Shown here one piece after another: positions 9,926 through 17,300 of a DNA stretch of 19,253 nucleotides (position 1 is the stretch's first letter; each line of letters opens with the position of its first letter). A program made the position numbers and the translations under genes. The notes below the pieces were generated by a model that was not told where the DNA came from, did not search any database, and was given only the letters and a program-made list of their open reading frames with translations. This DNA is from Escherichia coli (GTDB taxonomy: Bacteria; Pseudomonadota; Gammaproteobacteria; Enterobacterales; Enterobacteriaceae): NCBI RefSeq assembly GCF_003334335.1, contig NZ_QOWQ01000055.1; one strand, 5' to 3'.

Positions 9926-10027
9926 TTAAATATTCTAAAACAAACAGTTTTTAACTCCGGATTCCATGTCCTTTCTTGCACTGTCTTTGTCAAGAAAAAT
10001 TTCTTATGCAAAGAATTTTGTATTATT

Positions 10028-10062
10028 GCCGCCAGAAATTCCTGGCGGCAGATATAATTTAT
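10028..10062 (+). terminator. Hairpin between convergent ykfM and yafT (probable bidirectional terminator)
   Basis: Stem gccgccag (10028-10035) / ctggcggc (10042-10049), loop aaattc, followed by a moderately T-rich tract. Confidence 0.4.
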
Positions 10063-12179: not shown

Positions 12180-12647
12180 ATGCTTAAACAGGTAGAAATT
12201 TTCACCGATGGTTCGTGTCTGGGCAATCCAGGACCTGGGGGTTACGGCGCTATTTTACGCTATCGCGGACGCGAGAAAACCTTTAGCGCTGGCTACACCC
12301 GCACCACCAACAACCGTATGGAGTTGATGGCCGCTATTGTCGCGCTGGAGGCGTTAAAAGAACATTGCGAAGTCATTTTGAGTACCGACAGCCAGTATGT
12401 CCGCCAGGGTATCACCCAGTGGATCCATAACTGGAAAAAACGTGGCTGGAAAACCGCAGACAAAAAACCAGTAAAAAATGTCGATCTCTGGCAACGTCTT
12501 GATGCTGCATTGGGGCAGCATCAAATCAAATGGGAATGGGTTAAAGGCCATGCCGGACACCCGGAAAACGAACGCTGTGATGAACTGGCTCGTGCCGCGG
12601 CGATGAATCCCACACTGGAAGATACAGGCTACCAAGTTGAAGTTTAA
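12180..12647 (+). CDS. rnhA: Ribonuclease HI
   Basis: [28 protein letters not shown]...TGYQVEV, 155 aa. The track's upstream-extended ORF from 12069 is rejected in favour of the ATG at 12180. Confidence 0.95.
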
Positions 12648-15585: not shown

Positions 15586-15603
15586 CAAACCAGATAATAA
15601 AAA

Positions 15604-15632
15604 GGCACCGATTCCCCCGGTGCCTTTTTTAT
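15604..15632. terminator. Bidirectional rho-independent terminator between convergent mltD and yafE
   Basis: Stem ggcaccg (15604-15610) / cggtgcc (15618-15624), loop attcccc, T-run 15625-15630; an A-run precedes it, giving a U-run for the minus-strand transcript. Confidence 0.7.
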
Positions 15633-16256
15633 TTATGCCGCTTTATGTGCATCTACCATGATGATATCACTGGTGAAAAAGCCATCATTCTGCAAGGCAA
15701 AATACGTTCTCACCTCTGTCGATGCGCTCTGTTGGTAAATGCGAATAGCGTCTACTAACGCTTCTGGCGTACGCATTCTCGCGACCCATGAAGAAAATTC
15801 CAGCGGTAACTTATCTGTAATTAAATTATCAACTATCAGATTGGCTTCATTGATTAACGTCAACCACTCACCGCTGGCGTAGTTTCGTACGTGAGAGGTA
15901 TCGCGTAATGCTTCTACCGTCTGTAACCAGATGTCGCGCACTGGGTGACCCGGAGACATTACGTCCATCACAATCAGCCTACCGCCAGGTTTCAATATCC
16001 TATTCACTTCTCGCAGTGCTGCACCAACATCATGCCAGTGATGGGCAGAATAACGGCTGATAACAATATCAAATGCGTTATCGGCAAATGGCAGACTTTC
16101 GGCATATCCCTGGCGGGTGGTGATATTTTTCAGTTGCCGGGCTTCGGCAGCTTGTGCCACGACATCCAGCATGTGGGCAGATAAGTCATACGCCACCACC
16201 GCGCTCACGTTTTGCGCAGCGCCAAACGTTGGTCTGCCCTGTGGCAGACCTGACAT
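15633..16256 (-). CDS. yafE: Putative class I SAM-dependent methyltransferase YafE (207 aa; motif I not evident)
   Basis: Contains post-I (VVAYDLSAHML), motif II (LPFADNAFDIVIS) and motif III (ILKPGGRLIV) signatures; starts 3 nt after the yafD stop. Confidence 0.85.
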   Translation of the reverse strand: MSGLPQGRPTFGAAQNVSAVVAYDLSAHMLDVVAQAAEARQLKNITTRQGYAESLPFADNAFDIVISRYSAHHWHDVGAALREVNRILKPGGRLIVMDVMSPGHPVRDIWLQTVEALRDTSHVRNYASGEWLTLINEANLIVDNLITDKLPLEFSSWVARMRTPEALVDAIRIYQQSASTEVRTYFALQNDGFFTSDIIMVDAHKAA

Positions 16257-16259
16257 ACC

Positions 16260-17300
<1,041 letters not shown>

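Follow-up and report, generated by a model that had tools for sequence, protein, structure and literature searches.

The yafE gene of K-12-type Escherichia coli: a probable deletion remnant of a full-length methyltransferase gene, and a candidate RNA attenuator in the ancestral yafD-yafE spacer

The yafE gene of Escherichia coli K-12 (b0210) is annotated, and has been studied, as an intact putative methyltransferase gene. The same 207-amino-acid (aa) reading frame occurs in the stretch of DNA analyzed here (the window: 19,253 nucleotides (nt) of E. coli contig NZ_QOWQ01000055.1), where it raises two questions: how a class I S-adenosylmethionine (SAM) methyltransferase could do without motif I, and why its first codons form a perfect inverted repeat. 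Taken as a whole, the evidence is best explained if yafE of the window (the K-12 type) is, very probably, the 3′ deletion remnant of a 256-aa class I SAM methyltransferase gene, and if its apparent start is a piece of the former yafD-yafE spacer. The kind of event is ordinary, namely a lineage-specific pseudogene arising by repeat-mediated deletion, and no principle is overturned; the result is a useful correction together with a modest new lead, a conserved RNA element in spacers that have remained intact.

Origin of the 207-codon reading frame

To establish the ancestral form, one locus from each of 80 other Enterobacteriaceae species was compared (274 further relatives were not retained), together with 5,426 complete E. 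coli genomes, in 5,425 of which the locus was found. All 80 species loci have the same layout, consisting of yafD, a spacer of 74-91 nt, and a full-length 256-aa yafE with a GCGAG motif I. A protein search likewise returned 256-aa homologues in Citrobacter, Salmonella, Klebsiella, and Enterobacter, and, within E. coli, two very large clusters of 256-aa proteins with 91-93% identity. Motif I of the 256-aa form reads VLDMGCGAGHAS, and orthologues carry VLDMGCGAGHASFVAAQ where the window has MSGLPQGRPTFGAAQ. Because the 256-aa form is found in 80/80 other species and in about 70% of E. coli genomes, the short yafE is derived rather than ancestral. An earlier note on this DNA, which had called the short form ancestral and not strain-specific, is contradicted by these counts, although its statement that K-12 has a gene of the same length was accurate: a 207-aa gene is annotated there, and 501 aligned bp show 100% identity.

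Aligned with O157:H7 EDL933, the window shows a single 221-bp gap, which divides the annotated gene and its surroundings as follows (all on the minus strand).

15633-16256, minus strand: annotated yafE open reading frame (ORF), 207 aa (ORF list).
16260-17060, minus strand: yafD coding sequence, 266 aa, an EEP-family protein (ORF list; RefSeq annotation of the identical K-12 locus).
15633-16221, minus strand: the true ancestral part of yafE, from the third base of codon 61 to codon 256 and the stop (DNA alignment).
16222-16259, minus strand: the kept first 38 nt of the ancestral 77-nt yafD-yafE spacer (alignment with EDL933, JS316, and the species loci L003 and L006).
16216-16226, minus strand: deletion junction, a hybrid copy (TTTGGCGCTGC) of an 11-bp imperfect direct repeat (alignments).

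The missing 221 bp, which fall between 16222 and 16221, comprise the last 39 nt of the spacer and the first 182 nt of yafE; lost with them are the conserved AAGGACA Shine-Dalgarno sequence, the true yafE ATG, codons 1-60, and two bases of codon 61. Thus, the native start codon and ribosome-binding site are gone, and the gene is shortened relative to its orthologues by an identifiable lesion with direct-repeat ends. The window matches the EDL933 intergenic spacer without a difference as far as ...AACGTTTGG, and after the gap it resumes in yafE codon 61; up to TTTGG it is also identical to the intergenic sequence of JS316, L003, and L006. The kept spacer at 16222-16259 reads GGT ATG TCA GGTCTGCC ACAG GGCAGACC AACG TTTGG and is annotated in the window as yafE codons 1-12. 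The annotated ORF is therefore a chimaera, in which 35 nt of former spacer are joined to the ancestral yafE that begins with the third base of codon 61 and runs to the stop. Its ATG, 3 nt past the yafD stop, belongs to the spacer, where all E. coli and Klebsiella have it as GGTATGTCAGG, and it is in frame with the yafE remnant by accident.

The ends of the deletion carry the repeat TTTG(G/T)CGCTGC, whose left copy belonged to the spacer and whose right copy fell at yafE codons 59-62. In the alleles JS316, L003, L004, and L006, which keep both copies, the left one reads TTTGGCGCTG(C/T) and the right one TTTGTCGCTGC; JS316 has two mismatches between them, and the other three have one. The breakpoint cannot be fixed more closely than CGCTG(C), and the F-x-A-A-Q common to the window product and its orthologues is the direct repeat itself. 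A single hybrid repeat copy left behind is the signature of slippage or of microhomology-mediated deletion, and the past rearrangement that had been suspected at the yafD/yafE junction is, by alignment, this 221-bp deletion. A repeated or mobile element at the junction was considered and ruled out, as the junction region and the deleted segment each occur once per genome.

A deletion between the imperfect 11-bp repeats would thus have removed the 3′ half of the spacer, the yafE start, and motif I, after which annotation pipelines would have called the spacer ATG, now in frame, as the start of a 207-aa gene. The lesion has stayed hidden from gene callers because the deletion by chance made a new in-frame start. 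The classic parallel is provided by the deletion hotspots of lacI, which are deletions between short direct repeats arising by slippage or microhomology. Like those, the yafE deletion is small, has imperfect 11-bp repeat ends, and has left one hybrid copy; unlike them, it is a natural polymorphism in about 30% of sequenced E. coli and not a laboratory mutation.

The opposite account, in which the 207-aa gene is the ancestral yafE and a hairpin after the AUG evolved to tune its translation, has next to no probability. The annotation of the same 207-aa gene in K-12 agrees with it, and the hairpin does fall in the initiation region; against this stand the 256-aa gene in every one of the other species loci and in 70% of E. 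coli genomes, the conservation there of the hairpin between the two genes, some 60 nt ahead of the true start codon, and the direct repeat bordering the gap, which is a deletion signature.

Upstream of the deletion, yafD shows aa identities of 88-100% in 82/82 loci. Its TAA stop (16262-16260) is followed by GGT and then by the yafE ATG (16256-16254), giving TAA GGT ATG; the reading frame is indeed shut 5′ of yafE, as had been claimed, because the yafD stop shares the frame of the ATG. Since only one codon separates the two, read-through of the stop would yield a YafD-YafE′ fusion protein. Across genera, YafD retains 88-97% aa identity to E. coli and YafE only 67-80%, while gene order and spacer length (74-91 nt) are constant.

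The truncated product and its translation

Full-length YafE belongs with the UbiE/YcgJ-type class I methyltransferases: it matches Bacillus subtilis YcgJ with E = 8e-38 over residues 45-237, motif I included. To our knowledge, no substrate is known for any YafE. The window product resembles this type (YcgJ and B. halodurans BH2331) in keeping motifs post-I, II, and III, present as VVAYDLS, FDIVISRYSAHH, and LKPGGRLIVMD, which bears out the earlier reading of the sequence, and Pfam Methyltransf_11 matches it with E = 3e-23 over residues 4-96. It differs in being without beta1, motif I, and the N-terminal helices, and in having shown no SAM binding when purified (PMC12096079).

The absence of a GxGxG motif, also pointed out earlier, is evident both from the N-terminus, which starts MSGLPQGRPTFGAAQ, and from profile matches that begin past the glycine loop. 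Pfam and NCBIfam matches to the 207-aa product start at its residues 4-16, at profile positions past that loop; the Pfam class I methyltransferase domain is seen only from model position 5-8 on, and NCBIfam profiles match the product 20-35 positions later than they match the 256-aa form (for TIGR01934, profile positions 58-150 versus 35-150). Hence, the product has no (E/D)xGxGxG after a beta1 strand. In an AlphaFold model of the 256-aa protein (predicted template modelling score 0.78), residues 1-61 account for three helices, beta1 (47-52), the glycine loop, and the beginning of helix A. The model places beta1 inside the 61 deleted residues, so that the seven-stranded Rossmann-like sheet would be incomplete in the window product. 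In the closest solved relatives, YcgJ (1xxl/2glu) and BH2331 (1vl5), motif I aligns to residues 48-57 of full-length YafE. The class I fold has beta1 as its central strand, and contacts to SAM are made by motif I. With both lost, the 207-aa product is expected to be unable to bind SAM.

This expectation agrees with a 2025 study in which MG1655 yafE was cloned and its product purified: neither a SAM-dependent change in fluorescence nor methyltransferase activity was detected, while YafS bound SAM in the same assay with a dissociation constant of 0.68 uM (PMC12096079). Those negative results are explained if K-12 YafE is a deletion remnant, and they are the opposite of the observation, SAM binding by homologues of the same length, that the earlier note had named as evidence against its view of the protein. 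The main text of the study does not contain the words "truncat", "GxGxG", or "N-terminal", and the truncation goes unmentioned in it (PMC12096079). A literature search for b0210 returned unrelated reference labels only, and no paper in the collection searched contained both yafD and yafE.

The second peculiarity of the gene, the inverted repeat at its beginning, was confirmed in position, arms, and complementarity.

16231-16250, minus strand: hairpin A; on the mRNA, segment 1 (seg1) at 16250-16243, loop at 16242-16239, and segment 2 (seg2) at 16238-16231.

The two 8-bp arms, GGTCTGCC (16231-16238) and GGCAGACC (16243-16250), are 100% complementary and enclose a 4-nt loop, so that the mRNA (minus strand) reads GGUCUGCC-ACAG-GGCAGACC. 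The hairpin does follow the start codon directly; the distance of 5 nt from the AUG given earlier needs amending, as it begins at +7, 3 nt after the AUG at 16256-16254. Perfect inverted repeats of at least 8 bp with loops of 3-8 nt number 13, at 9 places, in the whole window, against 2.0 +/- 1.6 expected from first-order Markov shuffles, and these shuffle counts make one hairpin at a named spot unlikely by chance. Hairpin A is, moreover, kept in 81 species, and is therefore real. Further perfect inverted repeats of 9-10 bp with short loops occur in the window at 1430-1452, 10027-10050, and 12500-12523.

The hairpin lies within the ribosome-binding window of the annotated start and persists when the initiation region is folded. 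Its folding energy in the window, as in E. coli, is -16.1 kcal/mol, and the K-12 initiation region, at minimum energy (-42.5 kcal/mol, z = -3.2), retains it together with a second helix over the AAGG and the AUG. At the annotated K-12 start, this AAGG stands just 1 nt upstream of the AUG, and the hairpin spans +7 to +26. A ribosome-binding sequence so close to the AUG, a helix over the start codon, and a stable hairpin just downstream all hamper de novo initiation. Given these three features, de novo initiation at this start would be very weak, and the remnant is probably translated poorly if at all; reinitiation after termination of yafD translation would be possible.

Hairpin A is a relic of a conserved intergenic element and not a start-codon device: it became "codons 3-9" of yafE because the deletion set an intergenic ATG in frame. 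Nor does it form an intrinsic terminator in the window, where it is followed by AACGUUUGG, the third segment of the element (seg3) and the U-run having been deleted. An intrinsic terminator lies beyond yafE.

15600-15628: an 11-bp perfect inverted repeat, AAAAGGCACCG / CGGTGCCTTTT, with flanking A/T runs.

This repeat is a textbook bidirectional intrinsic terminator common to the convergent mltD and yafE, and the equivalent EDL933 site was covered by a terminator scan of that locus. With the spacer terminator deleted, yafD transcripts of the window would run through the remnant to this site, their likely 3′ end.

Loss of yafE across E. coli

The complete E. coli genomes divide among the following alleles.

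3,810/5,426 (70%): allele keeping the 221-bp segment.
1,328/5,426: K-12-type junction TTTG-G-CGCTGC (exact 40-mer across the junction).
270/5,426: variant junction TTTG-T-CGCTGC (TTTGTCGCTGC).
193/5,426: full-length allele with a 1-bp deletion (GGG to GG) in the motif I codons, annotated "frameshifted".

The two junction types account for 1,598 of the approximately 1,616 genomes without the segment. Carriers of the variant junction include NEBExpress (L084), REL606, C41(DE3), and Shiga toxin-producing O145 strains (among them O145 RM12367-C1, L085). The two junctions are the expected products of crossovers on either side of the single repeat mismatch, and their haplotypes differ. Two independent deletions are the more economical account, compared with one deletion followed by a point change at that very base. 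The match of the junction variants to such crossovers is a further likeness to events of the lacI type.

Over the retained yafE sequence, the full-length allele closest to the K-12 type among those examined is the frameshifted JS316, which shows three differences beside the junction base, compared with 16 for EDL933. S242F (window residue 193) is common to the window and JS316, at a position that is Ser in 22/22 aligned orthologues. Additional lesions have accumulated on alleles that were already truncated: P0013, from a cluster of 243 sequences, has a C-terminal frameshift, P0010 and P0005 have in-frame deletions, and P0018 has lost motif II, with deletion sizes of 13 aa, 16 aa (motif II), and 4 aa. 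P0014, a separate allele of 243 aa, is missing 13 residues, motif post-I among them. Together, the junction types, the frameshift, and the extra lesions indicate that yafE has been lost repeatedly in E. coli. Relaxed selection on the remnant finds qualitative support in S242F, at its otherwise invariant site, and in the extra lesions of truncated alleles. The full-length yafE of EDL933 (L001) carries three derived aa changes, at codons 88, 167, and 182, one of which, R167C, replaces a residue that does not vary among 22 orthologues, so that the EDL933 gene, too, may be impaired.

Two observations weigh against reading yafE as a decaying remnant. The K-12 branch carries 2 nonsynonymous and 2-3 synonymous changes, too few for a ratio of nonsynonymous to synonymous rates, and the remnant ORF is still open in about 1,600 genomes belonging to at least three haplotypes, so that selection for some SAM-independent role is possible. 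In its fullest form, this would make the truncated ORF a working gene, translated by termination-reinitiation from yafD and serving in a SAM-independent role or as partner or regulator of another protein. The position of the ATG, 3 nt after the yafD TAA and in the same frame, would suit such coupling. The ORF stays open in 1,598 genomes and three haplotypes; moreover, the recombinant protein was soluble and purified to about 90% homogeneity, and a yafE knockout gave fewer N6-methyladenosine (m6A) peaks, in one sample (PMC12096079). However, the purified protein showed neither SAM binding nor activity in vitro (PMC12096079). The central beta1 strand of the sheet is gone, more frameshifts and in-frame deletions have arisen on truncated alleles (one of them in the cluster of 243 sequences), Phe has replaced Ser at the otherwise invariant residue 242, and the initiation context is poor, with a stable hairpin. 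A working truncated gene is accordingly judged improbable, and K-12 yafE is best read as a pseudogene whose product is most likely nonfunctional.

The deletion-remnant reading argues for re-annotation of b0210 as a pseudogene. Lesions of the K-12 lineage that misrepresent the species are familiar from rph-1, the ilvG frameshift, and rfb-50. The reference-strain yafE is similarly a derived loss-of-function allele; unlike those lesions, the yafE deletion also occurs in many natural isolates and is not laboratory-specific, so that the deletion between short repeats, with its two junction forms, is documented here as a natural polymorphism. The practical weight of the finding comes from the fact that both laboratory E. 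coli lineages and an annotated gene under active study are affected. On this reading of K-12 yafE, work on YafE function requires a 256-aa allele, such as that of O157:H7, Salmonella, or Klebsiella.

A candidate attenuator in the intact spacer

What the deletion removed from the spacer can be judged from 81 intact spacers, 79 of them distinct. In intact loci, hairpin A is intergenic, beginning 8-10 nt after the yafD stop and lying about 60 nt upstream of the real yafE start. It is built from the first two of three segments whose conservation, expressed as majority-base frequency, is compared below with that of their surroundings.

seg1, (CA)GGUCUGCC: 0.98.
seg2, GGCAG(G/A)CC(UG): 0.94.
seg3, GG(U)GCUGCCC, followed by a U-run: 0.95.
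Hairpin A loop: 0.79.
Linker between seg2 and seg3: 0.63.
First and second codon positions of the flanking genes: 0.81-0.86.
Third codon positions of the flanking genes: 0.61-0.65.

Each of the three segments is more conserved than the first and second codon positions of the flanking genes. Seg2 can pair either with seg1, forming hairpin A, or with seg3, forming hairpin B; the two conserved helices share a strand and are mutually exclusive, as in an attenuator. Both fold in 81/81 spacers, with mean energies of -20.0 kcal/mol for A and -16.2 kcal/mol for B (-16.1 and -14.5 kcal/mol, respectively, in E. coli). Among the 79 distinct spacers, 98.1% of cells are paired in hairpin A and 97.5% in hairpin B. 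For hairpin B, three pairs (six cells) are changed on both sides, compared with 0.4 in shuffles, a value matched by 0-1 of 500 shuffles. Changes in seg2 that produce wobble pairs in A are compensated in B (L041, L024, L030, L039, and L055), and inserted linker bases lengthen the hairpin B stem in Klebsiella, K. indica, and the Trabulsiella group. Following seg3, the T-run averages 5.6 T in 8 nt, with at least 5 T in 71/81 spacers, so that hairpin B has the GC-rich stem-loop and T-run of an intrinsic terminator.

These features suggest an intercistronic attenuator. In intact loci, hairpin B and its U-run would act as an intrinsic terminator between yafD and yafE, and hairpin A, the first to form and the more stable, as the anti-terminator; the balance of A and B would set the yafE:yafD ratio by governing what share of yafD transcription goes on into yafE. 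A ribosome halted at the TAA of yafD would extend no further than the base of hairpin A. With seg3 and the U-run lost, K-12 and B would be left with an orphan hairpin A only.

Three observations weigh against this proposal. Hairpin A has only one variable pair (20-36: UG 39, UA 28, CG 11) and no double change relative to the commonest pair; the compensatory events in hairpin B come from roughly four or five lineages; and an internal loop in the stem of hairpin B kept the simple terminator scan from flagging it in EDL933. In a rival account, the intact spacer performs no switch: B would be a (partial) yafD terminator, A an independent 3′-end stabilizer, RNase barrier, or pause site, and the common segment a by-product of adjacent GC-rich stems. 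Such a spacer would account for the scarcity of covariation in A and for the greater stability of A in 81/81 spacers, where it always wins the equilibrium fold, and it would need neither a sensing component nor a conserved small ORF across the element, neither of which was found. However, B is excluded while A is formed, and yet B has compensatory changes and is 97.5% paired. The seg2 changes that wobble in A and are compensated in B, in the five loci named above, likewise speak against independent stems, and the conservation of all three segments beyond that of first and second codon positions is in keeping with seg2 being constrained by two pairings. A spacer with no switch is thus regarded as unlikely, though still a serious contender.

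It is very improbable that the palindrome works as DNA, whether as the operator of a dimeric regulator or by signalling recombination or replication. In E. coli it is a perfect 8+8 palindrome adjoining the left deletion repeat, as such a site might be. In 39/79 distinct spacers, however, one stem position is U.G, which is a C-A mismatch on the other strand and an imperfect palindrome in DNA; the series U-A, U.G, C-G is typical of RNA pairing, and the loop sequence is freely variable.

The preferred reading of the intact spacer, the attenuator, is put forward tentatively, with a likelihood that we place somewhat short of even: the Enterobacteriaceae yafD-yafE spacer may hold an undescribed cis-regulatory RNA, a three-segment anti-terminator/terminator switch that would control YafE expression against that of the highly conserved YafD and might hide the yafE Shine-Dalgarno sequence as well. 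It would have been overlooked since K-12 and B lost its 3′ half, and the junction variants would mark a recurrent deletion hotspot. Intra-operon attenuators or partial terminators with a competing upstream hairpin are known from the rplL-rpoB intercistronic attenuator and from alternative hairpins of the trp type. Like those, the yafD-yafE spacer has exclusive helices with a common strand, a U-run after the downstream helix, and co-oriented genes; unlike them, it has three segments only, no conserved leader ORF, and no Rfam match, and is known here from sequence alone. Of the spacer element, the window retains only hairpin A, and neither K-12 nor B is usable to study it. The conserved intercistronic RNA element, which lies outside Rfam, is previously undescribed and would deserve experiment.

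Several further properties of the spacer were examined. Its sequence occurs once per genome, and an Rfam search of the spacer gave no family match, the only two matches being unrelated, sub-threshold, and elsewhere in the loci. A conserved small leader ORF running from a spacer ATG/GTG across the hairpins and ending at an ATGA overlap, as in E. coli, was ruled out: a scan found a start codon in just 51/81 spacers, with neither frame nor stop position conserved. An outer helix pairing UAAAGG (the stop-codon region) with CCUUUA was also rejected, being 77% paired and no better than shuffled or slid controls. Seg3 and the first U residues, CUGCCCUU, are complementary to the invariant yafE Shine-Dalgarno region, AAGGACAG (RNAalifold; A4 columns 57-64 with 86-93). 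This helix is 91.8% paired, with every column invariant or changed on one side and no covariation; once hairpin A has formed, it could cover the ribosome-binding site.

Among the species loci, L003-L082 have yafD at approximately 965-1770 and yafE from approximately 1848. In L022 (JARDVN010000001.1, C. amalonaticus), yafD is broken off after residue 163. L077 (CACSKA010000023.1) is labelled Chryseobacterium sp. and yet has a typical Enterobacteriaceae yafD-yafE locus, suggesting contamination or mislabelling.

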